A stretch of DNA of 64,000 bases from Escherichia phage fEgEco12. A program made the position numbers and the translations under genes. The notes under the pieces are model-generated. The model did not search any database. It was not told the origin of the DNA and saw only the letters and a list, made by a program, of their open reading frames with translations. Every line of letters begins with the position of its first letter. The stretch's first letter is position 1. The DNA lies in sequence record PP777464.1; one strand, 5' to 3'. Below, piece by piece: positions 33,145 to 64,000 of the stretch.

Positions 33145-33159
33145 AACTAAAATCTCCAT

Positions 33160-34401: not shown

Positions 34402-34474
34402 AATAAAATCTCCGTAATTAAATTATATAGTATTTACAAAAAATACCAGTACATATTTCAGTACTGACCTATTA
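34402..34474 (-). promoter_or_regulatory. variant array cassette
   Basis: hairpin + TATAAT + GGAG. Confidence 0.5.
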
Positions 34475-35596
34475 TTAAAAGGGCAACGGTAACTCAGTAA
34501 AAGTACTTACGTCCGGTAAACCATACATTGAATTAGCATCACCACAGTAATACCACTTCGTAGAATCATGTACCACCGATAAACGCTGTGCACATAACAC
34601 TTCCTGTATGTCATTAAACACCATCGGGACTAACTCATATGTATCCGCAAATGAAGATACACCACCACTCGCATGAAAAGTATTCGTCCCAGCATAAAAT
34701 AACTGATTAGTGTTCTTACCCACAGCAAATGTCATCAATATCCCATCATTCTCCCATAAAGAAGAAAACTTATCAACACTACCAGAAAGCTCTGTGTAAG
34801 TACTCGTAATGGCACTCGCAGCCGCCGCATTACCCATCTGTTTATTCAAGTTCTGTCCAGCAATAAAATATCTCGTTCGTGCACTAGAATCAGTATATAA
34901 TAACCCAGTGTTCGTAGTCATCATACCAATGTCCTTAATCGTCATACCAGTCTGTGAATAACTTAGATACGAAGTTAAATTAACATTATTACCCAACGAA
35001 CCGTTATCACTCATGCCACAACGATGTAATATACCACTTGTATCAACGTAGATTGTACTAACTAAACTCGTATACAACTCTTGTACATTATTCGCAATAA
35101 ACACAGCAGTCGCCTTATTACTAACCCCACCAAATGATAGGTTATTATCAAATCCCTTAGCGTATAATTGATTATTAGTAGTCAATAATCCAATCGTGAA
35201 ATAAGACATTTTCATATCCCTTACTGTACTCAAATCTACTGCCCCAAATTGGTGCGTAACATCTGTCCATGTGAAAATCTGTGCACTACCAACACCACCC
35301 GTTTCAAACCATTTGTCACCACAGTACAATATGCGATTACCCTTAGTAAAGATAACTGTTACCAATCCACTACCACACGCAAACTTTACATCACTTCTAA
35401 CCTTCGTCCAATCAAGTACATAGGTAGTGGTGTTATTACCTATACCTAACTTGCCATAACGGTTATAACCACGCACCCACAAATCACCACTCTTAGTAAT
35501 TAATAGTAATGCGTCTCCTGTACTTATTATTCGAAATCCCGAACTAGGATCAGGTACTTCATTTCCATAATCAAACATTCTAACAAAAGGTAACAT
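34475..35596 (-). CDS. RCC1-like repeat protein, array member 13
   Basis: GYNRYGKLGIGNNTT motif. Confidence 0.75.
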   Translation of the reverse strand: MLPFVRMFDYGNEVPDPSSGFRIISTGDALLLITKSGDLWVRGYNRYGKLGIGNNTTTYVLDWTKVRSDVKFACGSGLVTVIFTKGNRILYCGDKWFETGGVGSAQIFTWTDVTHQFGAVDLSTVRDMKMSYFTIGLLTTNNQLYAKGFDNNLSFGGVSNKATAVFIANNVQELYTSLVSTIYVDTSGILHRCGMSDNGSLGNNVNLTSYLSYSQTGMTIKDIGMMTTNTGLLYTDSSARTRYFIAGQNLNKQMGNAAAASAITSTYTELSGSVDKFSSLWENDGILMTFAVGKNTNQLFYAGTNTFHASGGVSSFADTYELVPMVFNDIQEVLCAQRLSVVHDSTKWYYCGDANSMYGLPDVSTFTELPLPF

Positions 35597-35668
35597 ATTT
35601 CCCTCCTTTATTCATTATAATATATTTAATACAAAAAAGAAAAGCCAGTACAGAGTACTGGCATAGTA
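35597..35668 (-). promoter_or_regulatory. array cassette
   Basis: conserved cassette. Confidence 0.6.
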
Positions 35669-36778
35669 TTACTTGGGTAATGGAATTGTAGTCCATCTAT
35701 TAGCGGCAACGCCCCCTGGTACATATGTAGGACTACCACTTACAGCAATAGTTTCATTACCATCATACACAACACTGAAGTTTGTGCACGTATACAACGA
35801 GGCGGTATCTGGATTGTAATTTATAAGTGTTAATGTATTGGTGAACAAATTCAATGCAGTAGTTGACCCGTTTTTACCAAACGAACCTGTCGTATATATC
35901 TTTCCTTCTGTTGTTGAGTACATGTTAACATATGACCCAGATGATGATTTGGCAATTTTATCTATCTTGCTATCTATCGTTTTAGAGTTAAATTGAAATG
36001 GATATACCTGTACGTTAGTATCTAAACCATTTCCTAGTTCCCCATTTAACTGCCACCCTGAGTGGTACATTCCCGAATTTGTATATGCAAGCGTACTATA
36101 CCCATTACCACCCATTATTTTAGTGCCAGATAATTTTAAACCAAACGATGTCCACTTACCAGTTTCATTTCCTATAGAACCATAAGCACTTGTCCCACAT
36201 GCTCGAAGCTCACCATTCGATGTTAGAAGCACTGTATTATTAACGTTACCAAATATATCAATAACCTGATTAGTTCCATTATTCAGTACTGAAGTGAAAG
36301 TACTCTGTGAGTAAGTACTACCTGAACCAACAGAACCATTTGTGTTCATACCTCTTCCATATACAGTTGTACCATCAGCACTAACATAGTGCATTGAATC
36401 AAAACCAATGGATATCATTTTAATATTAGAGATATCTGGGAATGAAGAAGTTACATCTACTCCACCTAATGGAATTGTAGTATTTCCTAAACCTAATGAG
36501 ACATTAGTTCCGTGCATTATAAATTTATCTTCTTTCAAATATAAAATATTGTATCCACCAGCCCATGCATTACTAACACCATTGGTAATTAGTACCCAAT
36601 TATTTTGTGTAGCAGTTCCATCAATATTTAACTGTTGATAGTTATTGATTCCACAACCATATAGCGAACCATCACCATATAGTACATATAAATTATCATA
36701 TCCTGCTATAACTTTCTTTATTTTTTTCGGTACTGGTGCAATATTCCCGTACTTAACCATTCTTACAAAAGGTAACAT
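35669..36778 (-). CDS. RCC1-like repeat protein, array member 14 (close paralog of member 5)
   Basis: start at MLPF Met. Confidence 0.75.
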   Translation of the reverse strand: MLPFVRMVKYGNIAPVPKKIKKVIAGYDNLYVLYGDGSLYGCGINNYQQLNIDGTATQNNWVLITNGVSNAWAGGYNILYLKEDKFIMHGTNVSLGLGNTTIPLGGVDVTSSFPDISNIKMISIGFDSMHYVSADGTTVYGRGMNTNGSVGSGSTYSQSTFTSVLNNGTNQVIDIFGNVNNTVLLTSNGELRACGTSAYGSIGNETGKWTSFGLKLSGTKIMGGNGYSTLAYTNSGMYHSGWQLNGELGNGLDTNVQVYPFQFNSKTIDSKIDKIAKSSSGSYVNMYSTTEGKIYTTGSFGKNGSTTALNLFTNTLTLINYNPDTASLYTCTNFSVVYDGNETIAVSGSPTYVPGGVAANRWTTIPLPK

Positions 36779-36850
36779 ATTTCCTCCTTTATTCATTATA
36801 CTATATTTAATACAAAAAGAAAAGCCAGTATCAAGTACTGGCATATTAAA
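36779..36850 (-). promoter_or_regulatory. array cassette
   Basis: conserved cassette. Confidence 0.6.
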
Positions 36851-37999
36851 TCACTGCCAAAATGACATATCAACTTCTGTGAAATTAAGCACGCTCTGCG
36901 TAGAAAGACCACCCATTGCTACCATCGCAATTCCACAATAATATAACTTCCCTTTGTCATTGAGTAACAATGTCCCAGATGGTGTTGTTACTAAATTGCA
37001 CGAAGTATTAAAAGAAGTATATGAAGGAGTATAGTAGTACTGATTAATGGTATTACCTACACCTAATTTTCCATACCCATTTTCTCCAGATGCGTAAAGT
37101 ACTTCATCACCTTTAGCAATATGTGATGCCATGTTACTAACACACGTGTATACAGCTCTAACTCCTGTACTCAATAATGTAGGAGTCTTGTATTGGATAT
37201 CAGTACTAGTAGATGTCCCACCTGTACCAAATTCATTACCGTATTGTGCACCGTATTGTTTACCACAAGCGTACAAATTATTATCCGATTTGATAAAAAA
37301 TGTACTCTGATAACTTACATTAAAATCTATAACATCCGAAGAAATCATCGTCACCCCAGTAATAGAAGTTTGATTACCCGTGCCCAACTGGTAGTAATAG
37401 TTAAAACCACAACCCCATAAAGTATTATCTTCTCGCAAATAAATGTTACCAACTGCCTTTTTAACCGAAGTTATAGTATCTACTCTTTTGAATGTGTTAA
37501 AAGAATTAATGTTTGTGCCATCACCAAATGATGATATGTTCGATATATTGTTAGTTCCACAACAATACAATGTACCATCGTTTGTTATCAAATTCACCTT
37601 CATATCATAAAAACTACTCATGTATTTTATATCAGAAACATTAATACCACTTGATGTTATCCACGTAGTACAGTCCGTCCACAAAGTTTTTCTATCAGTT
37701 ACACCAGTGAATGCCTTCGTGTTACCAGTGATAAAAACTTTTCCAGTACCTTTCTCTTCATACAATTGACAATCACTACTGTTATCTTCCAATAGAACTC
37801 GTTTAACATTCTCCGCACAAAGAATAAATTTACTCGATGCTACACCTGTACCAGTACCCCAATTCGTCGCAGAAGATGCATACAACTTGTCAGTATAAGT
37901 ATCATGAAGATACATAGAATCACTGGAATATATTTTATAACGACCAGAGTTGGTAGGAGCTTCATTCCCATAATCAAACATTCTAACAAAAGGTAACAT
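36851..37999 (-). CDS. RCC1-like repeat protein, array member 15
   Basis: GFNYYYQLGTGNQ, GENGYGKLGVGNT motifs; start at MLPF Met. Confidence 0.75.
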   Translation of the reverse strand: MLPFVRMFDYGNEAPTNSGRYKIYSSDSMYLHDTYTDKLYASSATNWGTGTGVASSKFILCAENVKRVLLEDNSSDCQLYEEKGTGKVFITGNTKAFTGVTDRKTLWTDCTTWITSSGINVSDIKYMSSFYDMKVNLITNDGTLYCCGTNNISNISSFGDGTNINSFNTFKRVDTITSVKKAVGNIYLREDNTLWGCGFNYYYQLGTGNQTSITGVTMISSDVIDFNVSYQSTFFIKSDNNLYACGKQYGAQYGNEFGTGGTSTSTDIQYKTPTLLSTGVRAVYTCVSNMASHIAKGDEVLYASGENGYGKLGVGNTINQYYYTPSYTSFNTSCNLVTTPSGTLLLNDKGKLYYCGIAMVAMGGLSTQSVLNFTEVDMSFWQ

Positions 38000-38047
38000 A
38001 TTTCCTCCTTTATTCATTATATCATATTTACCCCAAAAAGAAAACCC
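38000..38047 (-). promoter_or_regulatory. promoter/RBS cassette of array member 15
   Basis: same cassette sequence. Confidence 0.5.
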
Positions 38048-53958: not shown

Positions 53959-54156
53959 ATGATTAGCATGAAATCAGTACAAAAACAAATAGAAACATTA
54001 TCAAAAATTAAACGTAAACAGTACTCGTTAGAATATACAATCAATGGTAACTATCATCTAATGAAAGAGAATAATTTCATTGTCATTGATGAATCATTGC
54101 AAGTTATTAGTATAGTACTGAAAGCATTAATCAATGACAGAAAAAAATTAAAATAA
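53959..54156 (+). CDS. hypothetical protein (65 aa), uncertain
   Basis: AT-rich ORF without a clear RBS; track start is TTG. Confidence 0.3.
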   Translation: MISMKSVQKQIETLSKIKRKQYSLEYTINGNYHLMKENNFIVIDESLQVISIVLKALINDRKKLK

Positions 54157-54160
54157 TCTA

Positions 54161-54189
54161 TTGACAATATCCTCCAGTACTGGCATAAT
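54161..54189 (+). promoter_or_regulatory. orphan promoter TTGACA-17-CATAAT
   Basis: TTGACA 54161-54166, CATAAT 54184-54189; leader carries AACCCATAGGGTGCAC. Confidence 0.5.
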
Positions 54190-54250
54190 ACTTACATCAA
54201 GACGAGAACGTCACTAACCCATAGGGTGCACAAATGTAACTATATAATAT
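54190..54250 (+). ncRNA. candidate short transcript with ACCCATAGGGTGC motif
   Basis: no ORF downstream. Confidence 0.3.
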
Positions 54251-54251
54251 C

Positions 54252-54324
54252 GATCAATAAATGATCAAAAAAGTACTGGATCAATTTAGCATAAGGCGTA
54301 TAATTCTGATCAATTCTTGATCAA
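54252..54324 (+). promoter_or_regulatory. cluster of five GATCAA repeats around a promoter (TATAAT 54299-54304)
   Basis: GATCAA at 54252, 54263, 54279, 54308, 54319; two pairs spaced 11 bp. Confidence 0.5.
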
Positions 54325-54485
54325 AGGCAATATACGCAGTTGAATTTATATAGACAGTACAAAGGCGTTACTATTCGTGGTAATGCTGGTGGATATGTAG
54401 TATCATATGGTTTGAATAAGATAAACACTAGTAGTATTATTGTAGCATTACAGTACTATAGTATTTTTATAATGAGGTTAAAATA

Positions 54486-54743
54486 ATGGCAGTAGGATAC
54501 GCGAAAGACGGGGCCGAACAAGACGAGATTCATGCAGTGATTCAGGCCGCCGTTAACCACGCTAGAAAGCAAATTAACGCACAAAGAGAATCACTTGTAC
54601 ATTGCCTCGACTGCGGCGATAAAATCCCTGAGAATCGACGCCAGGCCGTTATAGGGTGCATGTATTGTATTACTTGCCAGGAGGATCATGATAGTACTTT
54701 TAAAAGAGATCCGCGTAATTGTTGGCATAGATCTATGAGATAA
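54486..54743 (+). CDS. TraR/DksA-family C4 zinc-finger protein
   Basis: CLDCGDKIPENRR...CMYCITCQ C-x2-C-x17-C-x2-C motif. Confidence 0.7.
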   Translation: MAVGYAKDGAEQDEIHAVIQAAVNHARKQINAQRESLVHCLDCGDKIPENRRQAVIGCMYCITCQEDHDSTFKRDPRNCWHRSMR

Positions 54744-54748
54744 AAAGT

Positions 54749-54776
54749 ATTGACAGTACTGAAAGATAGTGTATAA
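54749..54776 (+). promoter_or_regulatory. promoter TTGACA-16-TATAAT
   Basis: TTGACA 54749-54754, TATAAT 54771-54776. Confidence 0.6.
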
Positions 54777-54806
54777 TGTTTTATATCTTAACTGAGGATA
54801 GTAATC

Positions 54807-55163
54807 ATGGGAATACAACATATCACGCGTACTACTGACAATGGCGAGATCACTGGCTATCAAGTACAGGGCAAAGTAGCACAATTGCAGTACTGGTTTG
54901 TTAAACGTGGAATCATTGCACCGGATCTTGATTATGACCGTGTAGCGTTTATTGATTCTCTTTATGTTGATCCTGATAGTCGGGGCAATGGTGAAGGTAA
55001 CGAATTAATGAATGCCTTTATTGATGCCGCCGATGATTCAGATTGTATCATCTTAGAATGCGATACGGGAGAAGATAACGCCTTTAATCTTAAAGAATGG
55101 TACGAAGGTTTCGGATTCGAGGTATTGATAGATAGTGAATATCCTATCATGATTTTATCATAG
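54807..55163 (+). CDS. GNAT-like N-acetyltransferase (small)
   Basis: VDPDSRGNGEGNELMNAF resembles GNAT motif A; C-terminal Y..GF. Confidence 0.5.
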   Translation: MGIQHITRTTDNGEITGYQVQGKVAQLQYWFVKRGIIAPDLDYDRVAFIDSLYVDPDSRGNGEGNELMNAFIDAADDSDCIILECDTGEDNAFNLKEWYEGFGFEVLIDSEYPIMILS

Positions 55164-55166
55164 TAC

Positions 55167-55223
55167 TTGCATTTAGTTTTCAGTACTGTTATAGTACTTG
55201 CATCAAGGGGAAACATCTTCCCC
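55167..55223 (+). promoter_or_regulatory. promoter + leader stem-loop module
   Basis: TTGCAT, TATAGT, hairpin GGGGAAACATCTTCCCC. Confidence 0.6.
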
Positions 55224-55241
55224 TACTAAGAGGAAATAAAA

Positions 55242-55430
55242 ATGGAAAACTTATCAAGTATTTTAGTACAAGATGATTTCGGTAATCCTGGAAGTGCTAT
55301 CATTGTTCGGGGCAATAAAGCAACGTTTGTTATTGCTGGTGGACCCGTACAGCGTAGCATTAAAAATAATGCTGTTACCATTAATAATGTACGCTATCGC
55401 TTAGATAAAGAATTAATTCATAAACTGTAA
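55242..55430 (+). CDS. hypothetical protein (62 aa)
   Basis: ATG after AGAGGAAA RBS. Confidence 0.5.
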   Translation: MENLSSILVQDDFGNPGSAIIVRGNKATFVIAGGPVQRSIKNNAVTINNVRYRLDKELIHKL

Positions 55431-55457
55431 TATTAATTTAATAGAGGATAACAATAA

Positions 55458-55781
55458 ATGTACATTCATACTACTGTCACAAAGGAAGTCCGTTGCCAGT
55501 TCGAAAGTATTCCGGGCGTATGTTTCATCACTGGTACGTTTTCCCCTGGTGATCGTGATAATCCAGTACTGTTACAGTTACGCCATCCATTATGGGATAA
55601 AGCATTTGATCTGCCGTTGAATGAATTCGCAACCACTGCTGATAAGTACATTAAAAATATTCGCGAGAATGATTGCCTATTCATTAATGCTTTTAGTGAT
55701 GCCGCGTTAAGTGAGATCCATGCTGTATTGGTTGCAATCATGGAATCAATGGAGAAAACTATATTCAAACAAGGTGAATAA
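55458..55781 (+). CDS. hypothetical protein (107 aa)
   Basis: ATG after GAGGA RBS. Confidence 0.55.
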   Translation: MYIHTTVTKEVRCQFESIPGVCFITGTFSPGDRDNPVLLQLRHPLWDKAFDLPLNEFATTADKYIKNIRENDCLFINAFSDAALSEIHAVLVAIMESMEKTIFKQGE

Positions 55782-55786
55782 AAACT

Positions 55787-55846
55787 ATTGACAATGCAAT
55801 CCAGTACTGTATAATAGTTTACATGAAGGGGAGAAATGATTCTCCC
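55787..55846 (+). promoter_or_regulatory. promoter + leader stem-loop module
   Basis: TTGACA 55787-55792, TATAAT 55808-55813, hairpin GGGGAGAAATGATTCTCCCC. Confidence 0.65.
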
Positions 55847-55864
55847 CACTAAGAGGAAAGAAAA

Positions 55865-56077
55865 ATGCAAGGTCAACTAATCGTTCGTAAATGGTCTGAT
55901 ACTAACGAAAAACCGTGGGATGTACAATACATCGCCCCAAATGGTGAATCCAGATATCAACCAGGTGTAACGCATAGTACTGAGCAATTCGCCGCCGCTC
56001 ATCGCGAACGTCTGTTACAATCAATGCAGCAAGGTTCCGGTGAAAAATTCATTCAGGATCATTGGCTGAAAGATTAA
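55865..56077 (+). CDS. hypothetical protein (70 aa)
   Basis: ATG after AGAGGAAAG RBS. Confidence 0.55.
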   Translation: MQGQLIVRKWSDTNEKPWDVQYIAPNGESRYQPGVTHSTEQFAAAHRERLLQSMQQGSGEKFIQDHWLKD

Positions 56078-56085
56078 AAAAGTAC

Positions 56086-56143
56086 TTGCACAGTACTGAA
56101 TAAAGTGTATAATGTTTTATATCGGAAGGGGAATAGTTCCCCT
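56086..56143 (+). promoter_or_regulatory. promoter + leader stem-loop module
   Basis: TTGCAC 56086-56091, TATAAT 56108-56113, hairpin AGGGGAATAGTTCCCCT. Confidence 0.65.
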
Positions 56144-56164
56144 CCTAACAAAGAGGAAAGTATA

Positions 56165-56338
56165 ATGGTCCAGGTAGAATTAACAGTACTGAAAGATCTG
56201 TTTTATCGGATTGGTACTACTGGCGAATATCCGAAGGGTGATAATGCAAAACTTTACGTATCACTCGACTTATGGCAACGCGAACAATTAGCAACGGCCT
56301 GGCGTAAAGGCAAAGCAGATCGAGAGGTGAAAGCATGA
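56165..56338 (+). CDS. hypothetical small protein (57 aa)
   Basis: ATG after AGAGGAAAG RBS. Confidence 0.5.
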   Translation: MVQVELTVLKDLFYRIGTTGEYPKGDNAKLYVSLDLWQREQLATAWRKGKADREVKA

Positions 56339-56484
56339 AAGAATTCTTATTTGAAGTAGTGTTTCAAGGTGTCGGTAATAACCAACTGATTCGATCAAGT
56401 GGTTATAATGTTAACCAGGCATGGAATAACATTAAACAAATGTACCCGAACGCTATCACATATCGCAACCCGAAAGAAGTTTAA
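56335..56484 (+). CDS. hypothetical small protein (49 aa)
   Basis: ATGA overlap; below track cutoff. Confidence 0.4.
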   Translation: MKEFLFEVVFQGVGNNQLIRSSGYNVNQAWNNIKQMYPNAITYRNPKEV

Positions 56485-56498
56485 AAATATTTGAAAAA

Positions 56499-56532
56499 GG
56501 GATTGACTCCGGTCAGTCCCTTTGCTATTATA
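56499..56532 (+). terminator. composite terminator-promoter (GGGATTGACTCCGGTCAGTCCC; -10 TATTAT)
   Basis: hairpin + TTTGC; TTGACT inside stem. Confidence 0.65.
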
Positions 56533-56622
56533 TACGCATAGAAACAAATTAGCCCACAGGGTGCATAAATGTATCTATTGTTTGCTGGTGGCTAGTACTG
56601 AAAACTATTTTTAAAAAAGTAC
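56533..56622 (+). ncRNA. candidate short transcript with TAGCCCACAGGGTGCATAAATGTATC motif and Chi octamer
   Basis: no ORF; GCTGGTGG 56584-56591. Confidence 0.3.
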
Positions 56623-56650
56623 TTGCATTGTACTTAGAATCAAGTATAAT
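56623..56650 (+). promoter_or_regulatory. promoter TTGCAT-16-TATAAT
   Basis: TTGCAT 56623-56628, TATAAT 56645-56650. Confidence 0.6.
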
Positions 56651-56651
56651 G

Positions 56652-56738
56652 TTTTACATCAGGACGGGGAACGAAATAAGTAACCCCGTTAAGTAGTCCA
56701 GGAGTAAGACATACGAAAAACTCCCCTGATAAAATAGT
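56652..56738 (+). ncRNA. candidate small RNA / structured leader (copy 2 of duplicated element)
   Basis: near-identical to 46398-46486; no ORF. Confidence 0.35.
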
Positions 56739-56766
56739 TTGACAATAGAAAGTAAACGAGTATAAT
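56739..56766 (+). promoter_or_regulatory. promoter TTGACA-16-TATAAT
   Basis: TTGACA 56739-56744, TATAAT 56761-56766. Confidence 0.6.
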
Positions 56767-56799
56767 ACTTACATCAACCACTGATAAGGAAACATTAAA

Positions 56800-57075
56800 A
56801 TGCGGACTTTACTTACAGCTAACGAAATCGAGCAAGTACTGACTACTAATCTGGAACAATGGAAACGTGAAGCAGATATCCAGGCGGTTCAATGCCTTAA
56901 CGATAAGTTAACGCCAGATGACTTAAGCACGATTGTTGATCCACAATTTTATGAAGATATTCACGACACGTCTTTAAGCGTCGAGGATGTACTTGATAAG
57001 CACTACATTGATACTGATTTACATGTTTACGGTCGTAAAAACTTTATCACTATTCACGACATTTACAATACTTAA
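56800..57075 (+). CDS. hypothetical protein (91 aa)
   Basis: ATG after AAGGAAA RBS. Confidence 0.55.
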   Translation: MRTLLTANEIEQVLTTNLEQWKREADIQAVQCLNDKLTPDDLSTIVDPQFYEDIHDTSLSVEDVLDKHYIDTDLHVYGRKNFITIHDIYNT

Positions 57076-57078
57076 GTA

Positions 57079-57140
57079 TTGACAAAGTATCTTAGTACTG
57101 TATAATAGTTTACATCAAGTGAGGGGAAACGGTTCCCCTC
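57079..57140 (+). promoter_or_regulatory. promoter + leader stem-loop module
   Basis: TTGACA 57079-57084, TATAAT 57101-57106, hairpin GAGGGGAAACGGTTCCCCTC. Confidence 0.65.
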
Positions 57141-57163
57141 CTAACAAAGAGAGAGAAATAAAA

Positions 57164-57346
57164 ATGGCTAAGTGCACTATCTGTAATAAAGAAATAGTAT
57201 TAGTTCCAAGTGCCCGTGAACGTGCCGCTCGGTTCGGTGGCAAAGCGTCAGACTATACAAAAATGTTTACTGCCCATACAGCTTGCCAGGTAGCAAAACG
57301 TTCACAAGAAAGCGTAGAATTAATGCGTAAACTTTCCAAAAAATAA
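57164..57346 (+). CDS. small protein with CxxC (60 aa)
   Basis: ATG after AGAGAGAGAAA RBS. Confidence 0.5.
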   Translation: MAKCTICNKEIVLVPSARERAARFGGKASDYTKMFTAHTACQVAKRSQESVELMRKLSKK

Positions 57347-57349
57347 GTA

Positions 57350-57411
57350 TTGACAAAGTATCTTAGTACTGTATAATAGTTTACATCAAGCGAGGGGAAT
57401 AGTTCCCCTCC
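57350..57411 (+). promoter_or_regulatory. promoter + leader stem-loop module (duplicate of 57079-57140)
   Basis: TTGACA 57350-57355, TATAAT 57372-57377, hairpin GAGGGGAATAGTTCCCCTC. Confidence 0.65.
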
Positions 57412-57433
57412 TAACAAAGAGAGAGAAATAAAA

Positions 57434-57757
57434 ATGGCTATGATCCTTGCCCAGAAAGTAGAATTGAAAATTGTAACCTCCTTTGACATTAACGTTAATC
57501 GGTGGACTGATTCACACGGCAATACTTACCACTCTTGCTACGTGTCTGCGTTAATTGGCGACCGCTGGGAAGACCTGGGACACGAAACCTTTACATACGG
57601 TTACGGTACACAAGGCGAATACACGGGCTTGGAGATCATTAAAGAAACCGTTATAGGTTTCAACCCGAAAGAAAAAGTTATTCATCGCATCGAGGAAGAG
57701 ATCAACAAAGAAATAACAGTTCGCTACCACGATGTAAAACGTAAGAAAGACATGTAA
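57434..57757 (+). CDS. hypothetical protein (107 aa), paralog of 50603-50926
   Basis: shared NRWTDSHGNTYHSC block. Confidence 0.55.
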   Translation: MAMILAQKVELKIVTSFDINVNRWTDSHGNTYHSCYVSALIGDRWEDLGHETFTYGYGTQGEYTGLEIIKETVIGFNPKEKVIHRIEEEINKEITVRYHDVKRKKDM

Positions 57758-57788
57758 TAGAATCCATTTAAAGTACTATTTGACATTG

Positions 57789-57817
57789 CCCAGATAGTAC
57801 TTTATAATAGACTCTAA
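57789..57817 (+). promoter_or_regulatory. promoter TTGACA-17-TATAAT
   Basis: TTGACA 57789-57794, TATAAT 57812-57817. Confidence 0.6.
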
Positions 57818-57852
57818 CTTGTAGTACTAACTCAACTAATAGGATGTATACC

Positions 57853-58248
57853 ATGATTACTAAATTCTACGCTACCCGTGAAGCTGCCCGTATTGTTGCA
57901 CGCGAGGAAGGAGCAGCATTTAAAGACATGGGCAAAGATGCAACGAAAGGACAACGCTGGGCCGTACAGTTCAAAGAAATCTCTGATATTGTGAATTCAC
58001 CTGAGCCAGTACTGACAGCAGCAGAACTAAAACGAGCGGATATGCTGGCGGCAATACTTGACGCACAAGATGAGTTTATCGCTGATTCTGATATCAAAGT
58101 ACAGGTAAACCACACCGCATGGACTCACGCGGATCACCTGGCAAACCTTAAGCGTCCAAGTGAACTGATTCGCAACCAGAAAGAGATCCGACATGATCGT
58201 AAGGGTAATCGTGTAACAGTATACAGTAAACGCCGCCAGGTTATCTAA
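57853..58248 (+). CDS. hypothetical protein (131 aa), paralog of 45535-45801
   Basis: shared KFYATREAARI...RKGNRVTVY blocks. Confidence 0.55.
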   Translation: MITKFYATREAARIVAREEGAAFKDMGKDATKGQRWAVQFKEISDIVNSPEPVLTAAELKRADMLAAILDAQDEFIADSDIKVQVNHTAWTHADHLANLKRPSELIRNQKEIRHDRKGNRVTVYSKRRQVI

Positions 58249-58270
58249 TAACTTGCAGTACTAACAACAC

Positions 58271-58295
58271 GGCGGGATCAGTTCCCGCCTTTTTT
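58271..58295 (+). terminator. intrinsic terminator GGCGGGATCAGTTCCCGCC + T6
   Basis: hairpin + TTTTTT. Confidence 0.7.
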
Positions 58296-58309
58296 ATAGG
58301 ACAAACAAA

Positions 58310-58564
58310 ATGATTAAGGTTCAACTATATAAAGATAACATCTTACGGGTACACTATAAAGCACCTCAGAGAATCATCACAAAGGCCGTACAGCTTGCTA
58401 ATGAGTTTATTAATGGTAACCTATTACCTAGGAAGTTAAGCAACGGGAAACTGCGTGTAATCGACGTGGACACTAACAACAGGATAGTAATCGAGAACAC
58501 AGGAAAGATAAACCTTTATGAGCATCAACAATACAATAAGAAAATAAAACTAATATCACGTTGA
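58310..58564 (+). CDS. hypothetical protein (84 aa)
   Basis: ATG ORF. Confidence 0.5.
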   Translation: MIKVQLYKDNILRVHYKAPQRIITKAVQLANEFINGNLLPRKLSNGKLRVIDVDTNNRIVIENTGKINLYEHQQYNKKIKLISR

Positions 58565-58589
58565 CAGTACTCAATTGTTTTAGTACTAT
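58561..58589 (+). promoter_or_regulatory. promoter TTGACA-17-TACTAT
   Basis: TTGACA 58561-58566; duplicated at 58837. Confidence 0.55.
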
Positions 58590-58617
58590 GTACACATACC
58601 AACACGGGAGAAACAAA

Positions 58618-58836
58618 ATGAAATTATCTAAAATCGAAAAGAAAACTATTGATGAAGCAGTTAAGCACGGTTATACCTTTCGTAATGATTCACATTTTAC
58701 CAATTTTCAACAAGGGTATCGTACTATTAAAAAACTAATTGACAAAGGTTTATTAGTTGAAGTCAATAACGGTAACGGTATCGAGTATCAACCAACACAG
58801 GACGCATTTTATTTTAAGAAATATAATATTATCTAA
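58618..58836 (+). CDS. hypothetical protein (72 aa)
   Basis: ATG after GGGAGAAA RBS; track ORF begins at TTG within the promoter. Confidence 0.5.
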   Translation: MKLSKIEKKTIDEAVKHGYTFRNDSHFTNFQQGYRTIKKLIDKGLLVEVNNGNGIEYQPTQDAFYFKKYNII

Positions 58837-58865
58837 TTGACAGTACTCAAATGTTTTAGTACTAT
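58837..58865 (+). promoter_or_regulatory. promoter TTGACA-17-TACTAT (duplicate of 58561)
   Basis: TTGACA 58837-58842. Confidence 0.55.
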
Positions 58866-58893
58866 ATGTACATACCAACACGGGGGAAACAAA

Positions 58894-59136
58894 ATGATTA
58901 CTTTAGAAAAACGTATCAAAGAAACTACATCGCTGGTGGAACTGTTAACAGTACTCAAATGTAAAACAACACCATTCAGCACGCCGGACTTTATTAATAT
59001 GGTTGATGTTAATGGTCGCTATCGTATCACGGTCGAACAAGGAGCGGCGAAAGTATTCAGTACTAAAAACACGAAGGAAGTGATCCACGCCGTTAATGTT
59101 AAAAAAGTAGTTGCCATTGATAGTAAAGTACTGTAA
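58894..59136 (+). CDS. hypothetical protein (80 aa)
   Basis: ATG after GGGGGAAA RBS. Confidence 0.5.
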   Translation: MITLEKRIKETTSLVELLTVLKCKTTPFSTPDFINMVDVNGRYRITVEQGAAKVFSTKNTKEVIHAVNVKKVVAIDSKVL

Positions 59137-59167
59137 TATAGTTTCATTAACTCAAGGAGAACATGCA

Positions 59168-59752
59168 ATGCGTAATTATACTAAATTCATCCGTACACTG
59201 TCAGAAATGGAAACCAACAAAGAGATCCTTTCAGCTTGTCGGTTAGCTGGCCTGGAGATCATCGGTGCTGGTTCTTCCCGTATAGTTTTCGCTTTAAATG
59301 ATCGGTTAGTGATTAAGGTCGCGAATTGTGATGCGGGTGTAGAACAAAATGAAACTGAATGTAAGGTATGGAATTTTTTAGACTATGACCGCCCTCAATT
59401 GAAACAGTACTTTGCAAAGGTGCATATGCATTTATGCGATCCTGATAATATGTTTATCGTTATGGATCGGTTGAGTACTGCAAGCAAAGGCAGTGTGAAG
59501 CACGTAAACGCGTGCAATGAATTAAAGTACAATATTAAACGTAATGCAATCGAACGCCAGCACCGCTTTGCTGATGCACTACAACACGTTGATGATACAT
59601 TATCAACACTAACGATAAGAGATATCAGAAAACAGAATATCGGCCAGGATCGTAATGGACTTATTAAAGTACTTGATTACGGTTTAACCAGCAATATCTG
59701 GAATCAGTACTATAAAAAGCGTGATGTGGCAGCAAGTAAGGTAACACGATAA
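59168..59752 (+). CDS. protein-kinase-like protein (ePK-fold motifs)
   Basis: GAGSSRIV glycine loop, VIKV lysine, IRDIRKQN catalytic-loop-like, DYG (DFG-like). Confidence 0.55.
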   Translation: MRNYTKFIRTLSEMETNKEILSACRLAGLEIIGAGSSRIVFALNDRLVIKVANCDAGVEQNETECKVWNFLDYDRPQLKQYFAKVHMHLCDPDNMFIVMDRLSTASKGSVKHVNACNELKYNIKRNAIERQHRFADALQHVDDTLSTLTIRDIRKQNIGQDRNGLIKVLDYGLTSNIWNQYYKKRDVAASKVTR

Positions 59753-59767
59753 AAAAAGATTAAAAAA

Positions 59768-59800
59768 GGGATTGACTCCGGTCAGTCCCTTTGCTATTAT
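59768..59800 (+). terminator. composite terminator-promoter (GGGATTGACTCCGGTCAGTCCC; -10 TATTAT)
   Basis: same element as 56499 and 62520. Confidence 0.65.
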
Positions 59801-59893
59801 ATATCCATTGAGAGATAACTCACTGACCCATAGGGTGCGGAAGTGTATCTATTATATAAGTATTCAGTACTGAAAACTATTTTTAAAAAAGTA
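59801..59893 (+). ncRNA. candidate short transcript with ACCCATAGGGTGCGGAAGTGTATC motif
   Basis: no ORF before next promoter. Confidence 0.3.
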
Positions 59894-59954
59894 CTTGCAT
59901 TGTACTTAGAATCAAGTATAATGTTTTATATCGAGAGGGGGAATGGTTCTCCCT
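59894..59954 (+). promoter_or_regulatory. promoter + leader stem-loop module
   Basis: TTGCAT 59894-59899, TATAAT 59917-59922, hairpin GGGGGAATGGTTCTCCC. Confidence 0.65.
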
Positions 59955-59973
59955 GGCAATAAGGAATAAAATC

Positions 59974-60195
59974 ATGACTACAATGACTTGCATTTACGCT
60001 TCTAATCTTCTGAATGATGCGGCCTTTAATGTTGATTCAGAATATCAATGTTATCGGGATGAAAATAAAAAAGTTTTTGTAGTTGATAATAATGGTTTCC
60101 ATATTGAATTACAATCCGGCTTCACTGGTGTTGATGGTAAATCAGTATGGGGCGTACAGGATGATAAAGGCACATATCATTTTAAACGTAATTAA
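59974..60195 (+). CDS. hypothetical protein (73 aa)
   Basis: ATG after AAGGAATAAA RBS. Confidence 0.55.
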   Translation: MTTMTCIYASNLLNDAAFNVDSEYQCYRDENKKVFVVDNNGFHIELQSGFTGVDGKSVWGVQDDKGTYHFKRN

Positions 60196-60198
60196 GTA

Positions 60199-60257
60199 TT
60201 GACAAAGTATATCAGTACTGTATAATAGTTTACATCAAGGGGAGAATAGTTCTCCCC
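60199..60257 (+). promoter_or_regulatory. promoter + leader stem-loop module
   Basis: TTGACA 60199-60204, TATAAT 60221-60226, hairpin GGGGAGAATAGTTCTCCCC. Confidence 0.65.
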
Positions 60258-60278
60258 GATACTAAAAGGAATAAAATC

Positions 60279-60683
60279 ATGACTACTACTAATCAAGCTC
60301 GGTCCATCGCCAACGATAAAAATCATGCTGCAATGGTCGCTGGTTACATTGAAGCTATGCAATTCAGTACTGTACACAATGAGAACGGCGATTACCTGGA
60401 AGATTATGAGTTATCTGATGAAGCACGTCAAGCGGCGGTGATTGCATGTTCTCGCTTCATTGAGAAACACGGTAATGATCTGGAAGTAGTTCGCGGTATG
60501 TTTATTGATTACGGTTATGAGCAAGCTGGTCATGATCTGTTCCTTACCCGCGAAGGTCACGGAACTGGTTTTTGGGATCGTGGTTTAGGTCACTATGGCG
60601 ATGTATTCACGAAGTACTGCGAAGAAATCAACGTTTGCGATCCCTATGTAGGCGATGATAATCTAATCTATATGGGCGAATAA
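60279..60683 (+). CDS. hypothetical protein (134 aa)
   Basis: ATG after AAAGGAA RBS. Confidence 0.55.
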   Translation: MTTTNQARSIANDKNHAAMVAGYIEAMQFSTVHNENGDYLEDYELSDEARQAAVIACSRFIEKHGNDLEVVRGMFIDYGYEQAGHDLFLTREGHGTGFWDRGLGHYGDVFTKYCEEINVCDPYVGDDNLIYMGE

Positions 60684-60689
60684 AAGTAT

Positions 60690-60748
60690 TTGACAAAGTA
60701 TATCAGTACTGTATAATAGTTTACATCAAGGGGAGAACTATTCTCCCC
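60690..60748 (+). promoter_or_regulatory. promoter + leader stem-loop module
   Basis: TTGACA 60690-60695, TATAAT 60712-60717, hairpin GGGGAGAACTATTCTCCCC. Confidence 0.65.
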
Positions 60749-60772
60749 ACACCAATAAAAGGAAACAAAATT

Positions 60773-61045
60773 ATGTCCAGCTACTCCGCTACTATGATCA
60801 TTAAAGATATGAACGGTAATCCTACTTCTGCTGGTGGATCATTTGGAAATATTAACTTAGATGGGCGGTTATCCATGCAATCAGCCATCGATACAGCGAA
60901 AGAAGTTTTTAAGAATGAATGTACTGTTAGTAAGCTGGATTATATGGGATTCGCTATCGAGAAAACTACTCGTTTTGTGAACTACAAAAATCCACTGATG
61001 ATTGATACTAACCTGAAAGCTAACGAAGTGGGGTACTTATTATGA
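60773..61045 (+). CDS. hypothetical protein (90 aa)
   Basis: ATG after AAAGGAAA RBS. Confidence 0.55.
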   Translation: MSSYSATMIIKDMNGNPTSAGGSFGNINLDGRLSMQSAIDTAKEVFKNECTVSKLDYMGFAIEKTTRFVNYKNPLMIDTNLKANEVGYLL

Positions 61046-61233
61046 CAGTAGAAGAAGTTAAAAAAGTACTGGCAGTACTACGATATCATAATCATTGCAA
61101 GGTGAAGAATGATCCTGATTATCTTGATTCATCCCTGGAGGAAGACACCTTGAACGCTATAAGCCATATGCAGACATTAGCAAAGCGTATGACTGAAAAG
61201 AACATGCCGGACTATATCGGAAATAAAATTTAA
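61042..61233 (+). CDS. hypothetical protein (63 aa)
   Basis: ATGA overlap. Confidence 0.5.
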   Translation: MTVEEVKKVLAVLRYHNHCKVKNDPDYLDSSLEEDTLNAISHMQTLAKRMTEKNMPDYIGNKI

Positions 61234-61239
61234 AAAGTA

Positions 61240-61302
61240 CTTGCATTGTAGTTAGATTAACGTATAATGTTTTATATCGAGAGGGGGAAATGGTTTCCCC
61301 TC
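61240..61302 (+). promoter_or_regulatory. promoter + leader stem-loop module
   Basis: TTGCAT 61240-61245, TATAAT 61263-61268, hairpin GAGGGGGAAATGGTTTCCCCTC. Confidence 0.65.
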
Positions 61303-61320
61303 AAGTCCAGGAGATACACC

Positions 61321-61584
61321 ATGAACACTATCGAAATCACTATCAATGCACACGTATACGACAACGTAGTACTGCAAACTACTATGACCGCCAATGATAC
61401 CAGTACTTTGCGGAATACTGTTATTAGTGCCGTATGTGCCGCTATCGGTGATGTCGCCCTGGAAAATGCAAAACACGTAAACGATGGTTTCACTATGTGC
61501 AAACGTGATAACGCAAAACATATCATCGTGGAAGGTTACGGCGGTGTAGAATTTAATGTTTATATGAAAAAAGTACTTGCATAA
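61321..61584 (+). CDS. hypothetical protein (87 aa)
   Basis: ATG after CAGGAGA RBS. Confidence 0.55.
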   Translation: MNTIEITINAHVYDNVVLQTTMTANDTSTLRNTVISAVCAAIGDVALENAKHVNDGFTMCKRDNAKHIIVEGYGGVEFNVYMKKVLA

Positions 61585-61632
61585 TAACTAAAACAAAGTA
61601 TAATGTTTTGCATAGGGGGAGATATCCTCCCC
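61577..61632 (+). promoter_or_regulatory. promoter + leader stem-loop module
   Basis: TTGCAT 61577-61582, TATAAT 61599-61604, hairpin GGGGGAGATATCCTCCCCC. Confidence 0.65.
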
Positions 61633-61651
61633 CACTAAAAGGAGTAATAAA

Positions 61652-61876
61652 ATGGCTAACTTTGATGAACTGATGCGGGAAGTAGCTAACCTGGCAGAAG
61701 AGAAGAAATCATTCGATTCTATCTATAACACCGCTCACCGTGATTCAGTACTGGCATGTAACCAGGATCAAAAAGATGAACTAATCGCCACCTATCATGA
61801 AGCATGGAAGTACTACCGACAATGGGAGAAAGAAGAAAGTGAGTCTACCATTGACGGCCTCAATAATCTAATCTAA
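61652..61876 (+). CDS. hypothetical protein (74 aa)
   Basis: ATG after AAGGAG RBS. Confidence 0.55.
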   Translation: MANFDELMREVANLAEEKKSFDSIYNTAHRDSVLACNQDQKDELIATYHEAWKYYRQWEKEESESTIDGLNNLI

Positions 61877-61888
61877 AAGTTTTATTTC

Positions 61889-61924
61889 AGTACTATTGAC
61901 ATAGCTTGATAGTACTGATGTAAT
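61889..61924 (+). promoter_or_regulatory. palindrome-embedded promoter (AGTACTATTGACATAGCTTGATAGTACT)
   Basis: TTGACA 61896-61901; weak -10. Confidence 0.5.
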
Positions 61925-61952
61925 AACTTTACTAACTACAAGGGGAAACATA

Positions 61953-62210
61953 ATGGATCAGTTCACACAATATCGGGTAAATCCACAAGCTATGGCCTAC
62001 GTAGAAGACCATAAAACGTTACCAGTACTGCAACCAGTTAAAGGCCATATCTATCGTGCAATGTCGTGGTGTACGGCCCAGGATGGCTATAAAACCGTAG
62101 CCGTGGGTATGTATTGCGGTGATGGTGAATGGTTTGATCCAAATAATCCGGTAGCCATTGACAGTACTGAAAAAATGAAATGGGCCGACTACATCGAAGA
62201 TATTTCATAA
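61953..62210 (+). CDS. hypothetical protein (85 aa)
   Basis: ATG after AAGGGGAAA RBS. Confidence 0.55.
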   Translation: MDQFTQYRVNPQAMAYVEDHKTLPVLQPVKGHIYRAMSWCTAQDGYKTVAVGMYCGDGEWFDPNNPVAIDSTEKMKWADYIEDIS

Positions 62211-62217
62211 AAACTAT

Positions 62218-62279
62218 TTGACAGTACTAACCAATAATGTATAATGTTTTACATAGAGCGGGGGAATAGTTCTCCCGCC
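62218..62279 (+). promoter_or_regulatory. promoter + leader stem-loop module
   Basis: TTGACA 62218-62223, TATAAT 62240-62245, hairpin GCGGGGGAATAGTTCTCCCGC. Confidence 0.65.
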
Positions 62280-62300
62280 AATAGTTTGGAGTAAAACATT

Positions 62301-62501
62301 ATGTCTATCGCTATCGCCCTGGTTGAAGTACTGAAAGAAGCTAAAGCCAACCAGATCGACGTAAAGATCCAGGAACTACAAAACGGCTTAATCGGCTGTA
62401 CTTGTACCGCTGGTGGAGCGGCAGACTATCGAGAACACGAATCACTCGAATCACTGGTTCGGTATCTTACCATGATCGTTGATGATTGGAGAATCATCTA
62501 A
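62301..62501 (+). CDS. hypothetical protein (66 aa)
   Basis: ATG after TGGAG RBS. Confidence 0.55.
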   Translation: MSIAIALVEVLKEAKANQIDVKIQELQNGLIGCTCTAGGAADYREHESLESLVRYLTMIVDDWRII

Positions 62502-62519
62502 CAAAAAAGAATAAAAAAA

Positions 62520-62552
62520 GGGATTGACTCCGGTCAGTCCCTTTGCTATTAT
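62520..62552 (+). terminator. composite terminator-promoter (GGGATTGACTCCGGTCAGTCCC; -10 TATTAT)
   Basis: third identical right-arm copy. Confidence 0.65.
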
Positions 62553-62660
62553 ATACGCATAGACAAAAACTAGCCCACAGGGTGCATAGGTGTATCCAAA
62601 ATATATAGTTAATAACGGTGAGTAACTATCTGCTGGTGGAACTAAAACTATTAATAAAAA
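62553..62660 (+). ncRNA. candidate short transcript with CTAGCCCACAGGGTGCATAGGTGTATC motif and Chi octamer
   Basis: no ORF; GCTGGTGG 62632-62639. Confidence 0.3.
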
Positions 62661-62664
62661 AGTA

Positions 62665-62692
62665 TTGACAAAGTATATCAGTACTGCAATAA
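62665..62692 (+). promoter_or_regulatory. promoter TTGACA with weak -10 (CAATAAT)
   Basis: TTGACA 62665-62670. Confidence 0.45.
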
Positions 62693-62746
62693 TGTATCTC
62701 GTAGGGCGGCAATGGTGCGACGGCCCACAAAGTTAGGAGATTCACC

Positions 62747-63079
62747 ATGAGTACTTCAATCGCTATCGTTAAAGCTTTCATCCGTACTAATGTTTCCTCT
62801 GTATTCATCGACGGCCTCGACCGTAACGTAGAATACTCAATCATTATCGCACAAACGGCAAACGGTTCTCGGTACATCCTGAATGATAGTGAAGCAAATC
62901 ACTACTACTTCACTAAAGCCACTGGCTTTAAACGCATCGATGCTGATGTAGTATACGCTAAGATGAATAAGCTGGTAGATAAGATTAACGCTAAAGGTAC
63001 TATAGATTTACAGTACTGGACCGAAACCGATCCAGAGTATGGATCTCACCGCTACCTGAATCCAGGTATCAAAATGTAA
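62747..63079 (+). CDS. hypothetical protein (110 aa)
   Basis: ATG after TAGGAGA RBS. Confidence 0.55.
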   Translation: MSTSIAIVKAFIRTNVSSVFIDGLDRNVEYSIIIAQTANGSRYILNDSEANHYYFTKATGFKRIDADVVYAKMNKLVDKINAKGTIDLQYWTETDPEYGSHRYLNPGIKM

Positions 63080-63086
63080 AAAGTAC

Positions 63087-63148
63087 TTGCATAGTACTTA
63101 GATTCATGTATAATGTTTTACATAGAGAGGGGGAAATGGTTCTCCCTC
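63087..63148 (+). promoter_or_regulatory. promoter + leader stem-loop module
   Basis: TTGCAT 63087-63092, TATAAT 63109-63114, hairpin GAGGGGGAAATGGTTCTCCCTC. Confidence 0.65.
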
Positions 63149-63168
63149 CTAAATTAAGGAGTTTTATC

Positions 63169-63570
63169 ATGACCTTCTCAATCACTTCCTTCGCTGACGT
63201 TTTAGTACTGGCCCGGACTTTTGGTAAAGATGCACTGGAGTACGCTGTAAGTAATGGCACTATCCAACCGGAACAGTGCCGCATCATTGGAAACTGCAAA
63301 CGTTGGGCGGTTTCCAATACTATTGCACTGGAAAACTTCCACGATGGCAACAATGAATATTCTGTTGATGTAGTATTCGAAGCCGTTGATCTCGGCGGTA
63401 TCTATAATACTAACCTGAATGATGTGCGTATCGTTCGCACTGGGTTCGGTGCTTATGATGTATCTATTCGTGAAGCTATGAACACCGGATACATTAGCAA
63501 GGACTTACTTGCTCACATCATGCAGCTGTGTACGGAACGTAACGAAGCACGCACTATCTTAGGACTGTAA
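63169..63570 (+). CDS. hypothetical protein (133 aa)
   Basis: ATG after TAAGGAG RBS; track N-terminus is promoter read-through. Confidence 0.55.
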   Translation: MTFSITSFADVLVLARTFGKDALEYAVSNGTIQPEQCRIIGNCKRWAVSNTIALENFHDGNNEYSVDVVFEAVDLGGIYNTNLNDVRIVRTGFGAYDVSIREAMNTGYISKDLLAHIMQLCTERNEARTILGL

Positions 63571-63584
63571 GCGTTACACATCAC

Positions 63585-63604
63585 CAAACATCATAGGCCG
63601 CCTT
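63585..63604 (+). other. hairpin AGGCCGC(CTTGTA)GCGGCCT
   Basis: 7-bp inverted repeat; no T-run. Confidence 0.35.
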
Positions 63605-63638
63605 GTAGCGGCCTTAACTATATCAGGAGTACATACAC

Positions 63639-63848
63639 ATGATCTATACAGTATACAACGTTCTAGGCACTATTGCAGGCGTACATGATAACGTCGATGG
63701 TGCTATGCGTACAGTACTGCAACAGGTTCCACTAAAGCCTAAGACCATTAAGCAGATGACAGCACGACTAACCAGGGCGACGGCTGGCGTGGAAGTATGG
63801 CAGGACTATGGGGATACACAGATAATCGTAAGCGTAACGAAGGATTAA
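63639..63848 (+). CDS. hypothetical protein (69 aa)
   Basis: ATG after CAGGAG RBS. Confidence 0.55.
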   Translation: MIYTVYNVLGTIAGVHDNVDGAMRTVLQQVPLKPKTIKQMTARLTRATAGVEVWQDYGDTQIIVSVTKD

Positions 63849-64000
63849 TGCGTAAAAGGATTTAGTACTGAATCATAAAAAAGTCAAGGCATTTTTAAAC
63901 TTCAGCGTTAAAAAAATGCATAGGTAATCCCTTGACTTTTATGAATAAAAAGGGATTGGACTATGGCAAAATGCGTAGGGGGCTAAAGGGCGGGTAACCT

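Follow-up and report, generated by a model that had tools for sequence, protein, structure and literature searches.

A minimal kinase-like protein of the Escherichia jumbo phage fEgEco12 belongs to PHROG 4301 and is distinct from the T7 gp0.7 kinase family

Can a phage protein that ends shortly after the magnesium-binding motif of a protein kinase still be a kinase, and what would it phosphorylate? The question is raised by a gene of Escherichia phage fEgEco12 (sequence record PP777464.1), located in the 64,000-nucleotide stretch analysed here as a whole (the window). Its coding sequence (59168..59752, + strand) specifies a minimal kinase-like protein of 194 amino acids (aa), in which a preliminary description, made from the letters of the sequence, had noted eukaryotic-like protein kinase motifs. 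The protein is a member of PHROG 4301, whose hidden Markov model (HMM) covers residues 3-188 with E=1.8e-41 in the PHROGs scan. This family is labelled as of unknown function and, carrying no functional annotation, gives no mechanism; the NCBIfam scan of the 194-aa protein gave no match. From the fold, the motifs, their conservation and the genomic context observed here we infer, with moderate confidence in the statement as a whole, a catalytically competent minimal ATP-dependent phosphotransferase, produced early, which would act on protein substrates in host takeover or counter-defence.

Phage-encoded early kinases are a known kind of system, and the kinase call itself is already public in the GenBank records of phages ph0011, Turkey5, SE_PL and fENko-Kae01. 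The Sharanji paper also calls WNN14351.1, the orthologue of the window open reading frame (ORF), a kinase, and lists a T7-type gene as well (PMC11895373). What is added here is the membership in the large uncharacterised PHROG 4301, its distinctness from the family of the T7 gp0.7 kinase (T7K; PHROG 2828/15752, Pfam PF27024), the native end at the DFG motif and an invariant signature of its own. Literature searches found no description of the membership in PHROG 4301, of its distinctness from T7K, of the DFG ending or of the signature.

Kinase-like fold and conserved active site

The four motifs of the preliminary description are present in the order it gave: a glycine-rich loop IIGAGSSRIVF (residues 31-41), VIKV (48-51), IRDIRKQN (150-157) and DYG (170-172). 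Pkinase is the top Pfam match of the single sequence (E=0.004). A single-sequence search of the PDB with phmmer retrieves kinases only, the best being MKK4 (E=0.005), with an alignment that pairs RDIRKQNI with RDIKPSNI and DYG with DFG. Profile A1, built from 11 sequences, gives 315 PDB matches, almost all to kinases (best E=1.8e-4), and aligns MKK7 over positions 29-182, from the glycine-rich loop (G-loop) to past DFG (E=3.3e-4). Profile A3, built from 116 diverse single-domain members with identities down to about 20%, gives 527 matches, again almost all to kinases; MKK4 is the best (E=2.5e-5) and PAK, BTK and PknB-like kinases are also matched. When the 116 members were scanned one by one against Pfam, Pkinase was found for 19 (best 5.7e-6), ABC1 for 10, PK_Tyr_Ser-Thr for 5 and the AceK kinase domain for 3; among the 25 families listed of the 51 matched by members (E<=0.1), no other enzyme family occurs in more than two of them. 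The sole PADLOC matches are weak ones to PD-T4-6 kinase models (E=7e-4), an output that offers no support for a defence-system component.

The AlphaFold2 (AF2) model obtained with the 116-sequence alignment has a predicted local distance difference test score (pLDDT) of 95.3 and a predicted template modelling score (pTM) of 0.91; that obtained with the 11-sequence alignment was unusable (pLDDT 53.9). The model starts with two N-terminal helices followed by strands 30-34, 38-42 and 47-52. It continues with a long helix (55-73, helix C), strand 96-100 (β5/hinge) and helices 109-120 and 130-145 (D and E), and ends with the short strands 158-160 and 166-168, which lie beside the catalytic loop and DYG, and a last helix 175-182. 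The N-lobe that contains helix C is five-stranded. The order of these elements agrees with that of a kinase as far as DFG. Foldseek searches with the model retrieved APH(2''), Lpg2603, PurC and MEK1 (E ~3-6e-4) with superpositions spanning about 115-136 of the 194 residues, and a bilobal kinase fold was found in the structure comparison. The modelled fold is that of a kinase-like N-lobe followed by the catalytic half of a C-lobe. The profile and structure searches against kinases that the preliminary description had proposed as a check thus both gave kinase-fold similarity. Its kinase-fold reading is borne out, since the family profiles match PDB kinases almost exclusively and the motif residues correspond to conserved columns of the family. 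A chance match of motifs is ruled out by the profile and fold evidence, and we regard the kinase-like fold as close to certain.

The residues expected in a kinase active site are highly constrained among the 116 members of A3. The G-loop G33-A-G35-S36-S-R38-I-V40-F41 (59264..59290, + strand, as for all features below unless stated), aligned to that of MKK7, has G33 in 98 members, G35 in 106, S36 in 110, R38 in all 116 and V40 in 102. K50, the β3 (VAIK-type) Lys (59315..59317), lies in model strand 47-52 and is invariant (116/116). Helix C carries the motif Q60-N61-x-x-E64 (59345..59359), with Q60 and E64 in every member and N61 in 112; from its position, E64 is presumed to be the αC Glu that forms a salt bridge with K50. 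The catalytic loop D152-I-R-K-Q-N157 (59621..59638) aligns to HRDIKPSN of MKK4, D152 being found in 113 members. In the DFG-type Mg-binding motif D170-Y-G172 (59675..59683), the Asp and the Gly are each conserved in 115 members and the middle residue is Tyr in 85 and Phe in 24, so that D[YF]G occurs in 109 of the 116. Two further glycines, G57 and G159, are each found in 115. The family signature can be written GxGSSRxV[FY] ... [VA][LI]K[IVL]A ... GxxQNxxE ... D-x4-[NHSQ]-x-G ... D[YF]G.

The protein ends soon after this last motif: 24 residues follow D170 (22 follow G172), with one short helix (175-182), whereas in a Hanks kinase the DFG Asp is followed by some 110 residues or more. Subdomains VIII-XI (activation segment/APE, P+1 loop, αF Asp and αG-αI) are missing. 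Across the 116 members the median number of residues after the DFG Asp is 26, the 10th percentile 13 and the minimum 3. An exhaustive profile search covering 1.84 billion representatives returned 2,088 clusters (50% identity) at E<=1e-3 and 253 at E<=1e-10; the 150 clusters listed of the 2,088 are mostly 170-260 aa long, and many stop 3-20 residues past DYG. Because the short length is conserved throughout the family, the loss of the activation segment, P+1 loop and αF-αI corresponds to its native state, and a truncated or pseudogenised full-length kinase is ruled out. To our knowledge, PHROG 4301 members would rank among the smallest kinase-like catalytic cores.

The gene itself is well delimited. 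The ORF has an ATG at 59168, preceded at a spacing of 8 nt by a Shine-Dalgarno sequence AAGGAG read directly from the sequence (59154..59159), and the stop codon ends at 59752, exactly as in the preliminary description. A longer version starting with TTG at 59111 was rejected: it overlaps the upstream gene, and the homologues all begin at the Met equivalent to that of MRNY. The source phage is an Asteriusvirus (a PBECO4/121Q/G17-like E. coli jumbo phage of ~350-385 kb), and 21 Asteriusvirus genomes match a 3-kb piece around the kinase gene at 95-99% identity. Identical copies (100%) of the 194-aa protein are found in phages ph0011, ELP-22, WPEC3 and WPEC5. Orthologues with 36-40% identity occur in RaK2-like Klebsiella, Salmonella, Erwinia and Xanthomonas jumbo phages, and weaker-matching ones in CBB and fHe-Yen9-04. 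This distribution of orthologues across jumbo phages identifies the ORF as a conserved coding gene.

Proposed activity and its alternatives

Strict conservation of every residue expected to bind ATP or Mg or to take part in catalysis favours an active enzyme over a pseudokinase, and judged from the sequence catalytic competence is quite probable. Binding of ATP would involve the GxGSSRxV loop, the K50-E64 pair and the Mg ligands N157 and D170, with D152 as the putative catalytic base. Host RNA polymerase probably transcribes the gene early in infection, and the product would be a free-standing protein Ser/Thr(/Tyr) kinase whose substrate site is open and has little selectivity. Host proteins, and possibly those of the phage as well, would be phosphorylated in the course of takeover or to weaken defences, in the manner of the T7 gp0.7 kinase domain. 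Phage kinases have lately gained prominence. T7K is a hyper-promiscuous early kinase of dual specificity by which several defence systems are disarmed, and in 2026 most host and phage proteins were shown to be phosphorylated by gp0.7 (PMC13645617). It is this analogy, together with the early-gene context, that suggests roles in host reprogramming or counter-defence (PMC13645617).

The gene lies within a run of small same-strand genes, and the promoter scan found seven perfect TTGACA-16/17-TATAAT promoters (12/12 consensus) in the 6 kb around it. It is also located inside the annotated direct terminal repeats of vB_Ec-M-J and fENko-Kae01, and genome records assembled with both repeats contain two copies. 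The terminal repeats of Asteriusvirus are ~20 kb long (PMC13070987). Phage CBB, a relative, has short ORFs preceded by clustered RpoD-like promoters that extend into the terminal repeat, and these were interpreted as an early host-takeover region (PMC5259590). The sigma-70 promoter block and the terminal-repeat position in related genomes suggest that the kinase gene is probably early.

Several observations weigh against this interpretation. The Pkinase (PF00069) match of the single sequence scores 17.0 bits, below the gathering threshold of 31.7. Position 157, which holds the D+5 metal ligand, varies (Asn in 46 of the 116 members, His in 32, Ser in 22 and Gln in 14), and the D+2 Lys of Ser/Thr kinases is not conserved, the residue being R154 here and variable across the 116 members. 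With the whole substrate-binding half missing, the sequence gives no clue to protein-substrate specificity. The case for a probable early timing is made from promoter consensus and gene position. Compared with a background formed by the other window ORFs (17.2% Ser+Thr+Tyr) rather than by a proper late-gene set, the early proteins nearby (15.7%) show no clear depletion, so that the genomic signature reported for T7-like phages is not evident. Lastly, a distant relative (P0035) stands among structural genes on a T4-like 189-kb contig, where it adjoins the major capsid gene.

The alternative that survives best, although we consider it unlikely, is a kinase-fold phosphotransferase with a non-protein substrate, which could be RNA/tRNA, a small molecule, or a nucleotide or immune second messenger. 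Precedents exist in the aminoglycoside kinases and in ArkI, a tRNA kinase of archaea. The absence of the D+2 Lys would fit such an activity, as would the rank of ABC1/UbiB, an atypical kinase family, as the second commonest Pfam match of the members. However, the small-molecule kinases of this fold use large C-terminal helical lobes that are absent here, and the profiles match protein kinases (MKK4/7, PAK, BTK, PknB-like) rather than the APH, choline-kinase or Kdo Pfam families. The fusion of one relative (P0134) to a 2H phosphoesterase and a CCA/poly(A)-polymerase head, a set that resembles an RNA-repair system, points in the same direction as the missing Lys but is a single metagenomic gene call. 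Moreover the T7K family, which contains the sole characterised phage kinases of the same truncated layout, consists of protein kinases. Proteins are the substrates we favour, with reasonable rather than strong confidence.

It is improbable that the protein is a pseudokinase or ATP-binding module acting through nucleotide or host-partner binding, sequestration or allostery without phosphotransfer. Such a role would be in keeping with the lack of an activation segment and of helix αF (the anchor of the catalytic spines in active protein kinases), with the variable D+5 metal ligand, and with the fact that many viral and bacterial effector proteins of the kinase fold are non-canonical. Against it, the catalytic residues are constrained over a large divergence (K50 and E64 100%, D152 97%, D170 99%), which is unusual for pseudokinases, and T7K is highly active despite the same truncation (PMC13645617). 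A different chemistry, that of a SAICAR-synthetase-like ATP-dependent ligase or of a SelO/SidJ-type AMPylase or glutamylase, is very improbable, since the conserved D-x4-[NHSQ] and D-[YF]-G are phosphotransferase motifs, SAICAR synthetase is neither matched in Pfam by the window protein (E<=10) nor one of the 25 families listed from the scan of the 116 members (E<=0.1), and the resemblance to PurC, with an identity of 10-13% in the structural alignment, is that expected of any kinase N-lobe with a short C-lobe.

Relation to T7K and other kinase-fold proteins

The window protein and T7K have several features in common. In T7K homologues devoid of the shutoff domain (SFP21A, 236 aa; ELP22_0605, 213 aa) the core, too, has neither an activation loop nor αF-αI and ends ~20 residues past the Mg-binding Asp; jumbo-phage homologues of this kind are known from G17 and Munch (PMC13645617). 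In both T7K and the window family the G-loop is preceded by a helical N-terminal extension that finishes with 'AG[LF]xxLGxG'. T7K also lies among early genes transcribed by the host RNA polymerase near the leading genome end, a setting that resembles the probable early status of the window gene.

For profile comparison, a T7-family alignment of 14 sequences was used; the homologue search with T7K gave at least 69% identity among the 120 matches listed, and the distant members were taken from GenBank phages. Comparison of A3 with this alignment by hhalign gave a probability of 62% and a score of 36.8 (P=7e-5) over 136 columns, in which the G-loop, VIKV and the catalytic and Mg-binding Asp residues line up; column shuffles scored 12.2 +/- 2.5 (maximum 19.5) and the reversed alignment 14.1. 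The A3 HMM matches ELP22_0605 with p=1.2e-6. Structural matches in BFVD include T7-type kinases at E ~1e-5 with a template modelling score (TM) of ~0.55; ranked above them are numerous uncharacterised small proteins of phages and a few proteins with the annotation 'protein kinase'. Comparisons with T7K itself gave a probability of 2.5% (hhalign of profile A2 against the single T7 sequence) and p=0.003-0.07 (HMMs A1-A3). A home-made T7-family HMM ranks the window ORF first among the 383 window ORFs, yet with E=0.11, and PHROG 2828 is not among the PHROGs matches of the window protein at E<=1.

Further differences are found in the motifs and the architecture. The T7K homologues carry ITDP[VIL] (the DPV motif) where the window protein has DYG (PMC13645617). 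The T7K G-loop reads GNGHFSAA and that of the window family GxGSSRxV, and the invariant QNxxE does not occur in T7K. T7K has a C-terminal shutoff/DNA-binding domain, whereas the window protein ends at residue 194 without one. Membership in the T7K family was accordingly rejected (no PHROG 2828 match, E=0.11, DYG instead of DPV), and a remote similarity remains. The family HMM gives 27.6 bits for MKK4 and 0.9 for T7K, placing the family nearer to cellular protein kinases. As cellular kinases outscore T7K, no specific sister relationship to T7K is shown, and T7K is best regarded as the closest functional and architectural analogue and not as the parent family.

Asteriusviruses also possess a true T7K homologue at another site in the genome (PMC13645617, PMC11895373). 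Asteriusvirus ELP-22 encodes a second mini-kinase, ELP22_0605 (213 aa, ITDPLS motif; L004 2881-3522, record positions 321908-322549), which belongs to the T7 gp0.7 family (PHROG 15752, E=4e-91; PHROG 2828, E=8e-17). Its gene lies ~300 kb from the orthologue of the window gene and has genes annotated for virion structural proteins immediately upstream. A search of the window for an ELP22_0605-like kinase and for paralogues of the window kinase found neither.

With the Hanks kinases (PF00069) the window protein shares subdomains I-VII in order (G-loop, β3 Lys, αC Glu, hinge, D-x4-N and the DFG-type motif). It differs from them in the absence of VIII-XI, in the reduction of HRD to D and in the unconserved D+2 Lys; the third G-loop Gly of Hanks kinases is replaced by the invariant Arg of the family. 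Among reduced or atypical kinase-fold enzymes of solved structure, APH(2''), RIO2, TkArkI, Lpg2603 (Legionella) and SteC (Salmonella) show a comparable structural similarity to the window protein, and the N-lobe of SteC is matched by the family profile (8jbi, E=0.004). Several of these enzymes are likewise small and devoid of a canonical activation loop. However, the listed targets with a structural alignment are longer (216-301 residues compared with 194) and have more structure past the Mg-binding motif, in the form of helical C-lobe elements; none has the GSSR / QNxxE signature. Neither APH nor choline-kinase Pfam families are matched by the window protein or appear in the list of 25 families drawn from the 116 members, so that the similarity to such kinases is one of structure only.

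Gene neighbourhood, distant relatives and implications

Little of the immediate neighbourhood is informative about the kinase gene apart from a ParE-like protein. The gene begins 31 nt past the end of an 80-aa gene (58894-59136), which is preceded by a sigma-70-like promoter TTGACA-17-TACTAT detected in the promoter scan (58837..58865). This promoter probably drives the kinase gene too, by co-transcription. Directly upstream of the kinase, a 71-nt tandem duplication (D11; 87% identity) comprising a promoter (in the second copy, that at 58837) and leader occupies 58551-58621 and 58827-58897, its copies preceding the adjacent small genes 58618-58836 and 58894-59136. The counterpart of the former gene in phage Turkey5 is annotated 'transcriptional regulator'. 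More generally, at ~54000-64000 (+) a repeated cassette composed of a perfect or near-perfect sigma-70 promoter, a GGGGA...TCCCC hairpin in the 5' untranslated region and a ribosome-binding site precedes nearly every small gene.

Directly after the stop codon of the kinase lies a terminator-like 12-bp hairpin (GGGATTGACTCCGGTCAGTCCC; 59765..59792), overlapped by a promoter-like site TTGACT-17-TATTAT (59772-59800). Both belong to a 93-nt element, in which the hairpin and promoter-like site are followed by a conserved CCCA[CT]AGGGTGC and which occurs three times, at 56483-56575, 59752-59844 and 62504-62596. It could represent a terminator-promoter junction, a small-RNA or a regulatory site.

The ParE-like toxin-domain protein (84 aa, 58310-58564, +; PF24732, E=6e-11) is encoded three genes upstream of the kinase. 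A ParE_like gene (L012 1205-1456) is also present ~2.4 kb upstream of P0029, a 39%-identical homologue of the kinase, on an unrelated metagenomic phage contig. This shared neighbour may reflect loose synteny or coincidence. In close relatives (phage ph0011, L001 1317-1995, corresponding by offset to about 54.5-55.2 kb of the window) the early block includes an annotated DksA/TraR C4 zinc-finger protein and a GNAT acetyltransferase, which are likely host-takeover factors. Elsewhere in the window, the minus strand carries at 19665-38017 a head-to-tail array of ~15 apparently paralogous ORFs of 245-402 aa. One of them (22701-23849) encodes an RCC1-repeat β-propeller protein of PHROG 4219, and the array is unusually rich in Ser+Thr+Tyr (26.8%).

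Distant metagenomic relatives are also assigned to PHROG 4301, and the three contexts of distant relatives (P0029, P0038 and P0035) are all phage contigs. P0029 belongs to a similar small-gene block near a contig end and P0038 is located among auxiliary genes. Apart from the possible ParE-like gene, no conserved neighbours were found across these three contexts, and thus no operon partner can be proposed.

Three metagenomic gene calls, for which gene-calling artefacts are possible, contain the mini-kinase domain in longer proteins. P0044 (693 aa) contains three copies of the domain. P0158 (3,248 aa) carries two tandem copies together with a Pfam PhageMin_Tail (minor-tail) domain, and P0134 (2,130 aa) has several kinase domains in addition to its 2H phosphoesterase and CCA/poly(A)-polymerase head domains. 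The P0158 and P0134 fusions hint that the domain may act as infection begins or have functions connected with RNA.

A broader proposal, to which we attach only low confidence, is that PHROG 4301 constitutes a very large, apparently phage-borne clade of DFG-terminated mini-kinases distinct from T7K, in which GxGSSRxV and QNxxE may replace functions of the missing C-lobe. Its members might be made first or be injected, as the PhageMin_Tail domain of a possibly tape-measure-like protein would suggest, and might represent a second independent route to pervasive phosphorylation of host or defence proteins, or else act on a non-protein substrate.

PHROG 4301 is separate from the T7 gp0.7 family and much more widespread. 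As the protein is small and relatives infect E. coli K-12 (Sharanji, for example, infects MG1655), its activity, substrates and anti-defence effects are directly testable. If PHROG 4301 is active, Asteriusviruses would field two unrelated mini-kinases, and the family would show how small a part of the kinase fold suffices for catalysis. Pervasive or targeted phosphorylation would then be a common strategy of early infection, extending well beyond T7-like phages.

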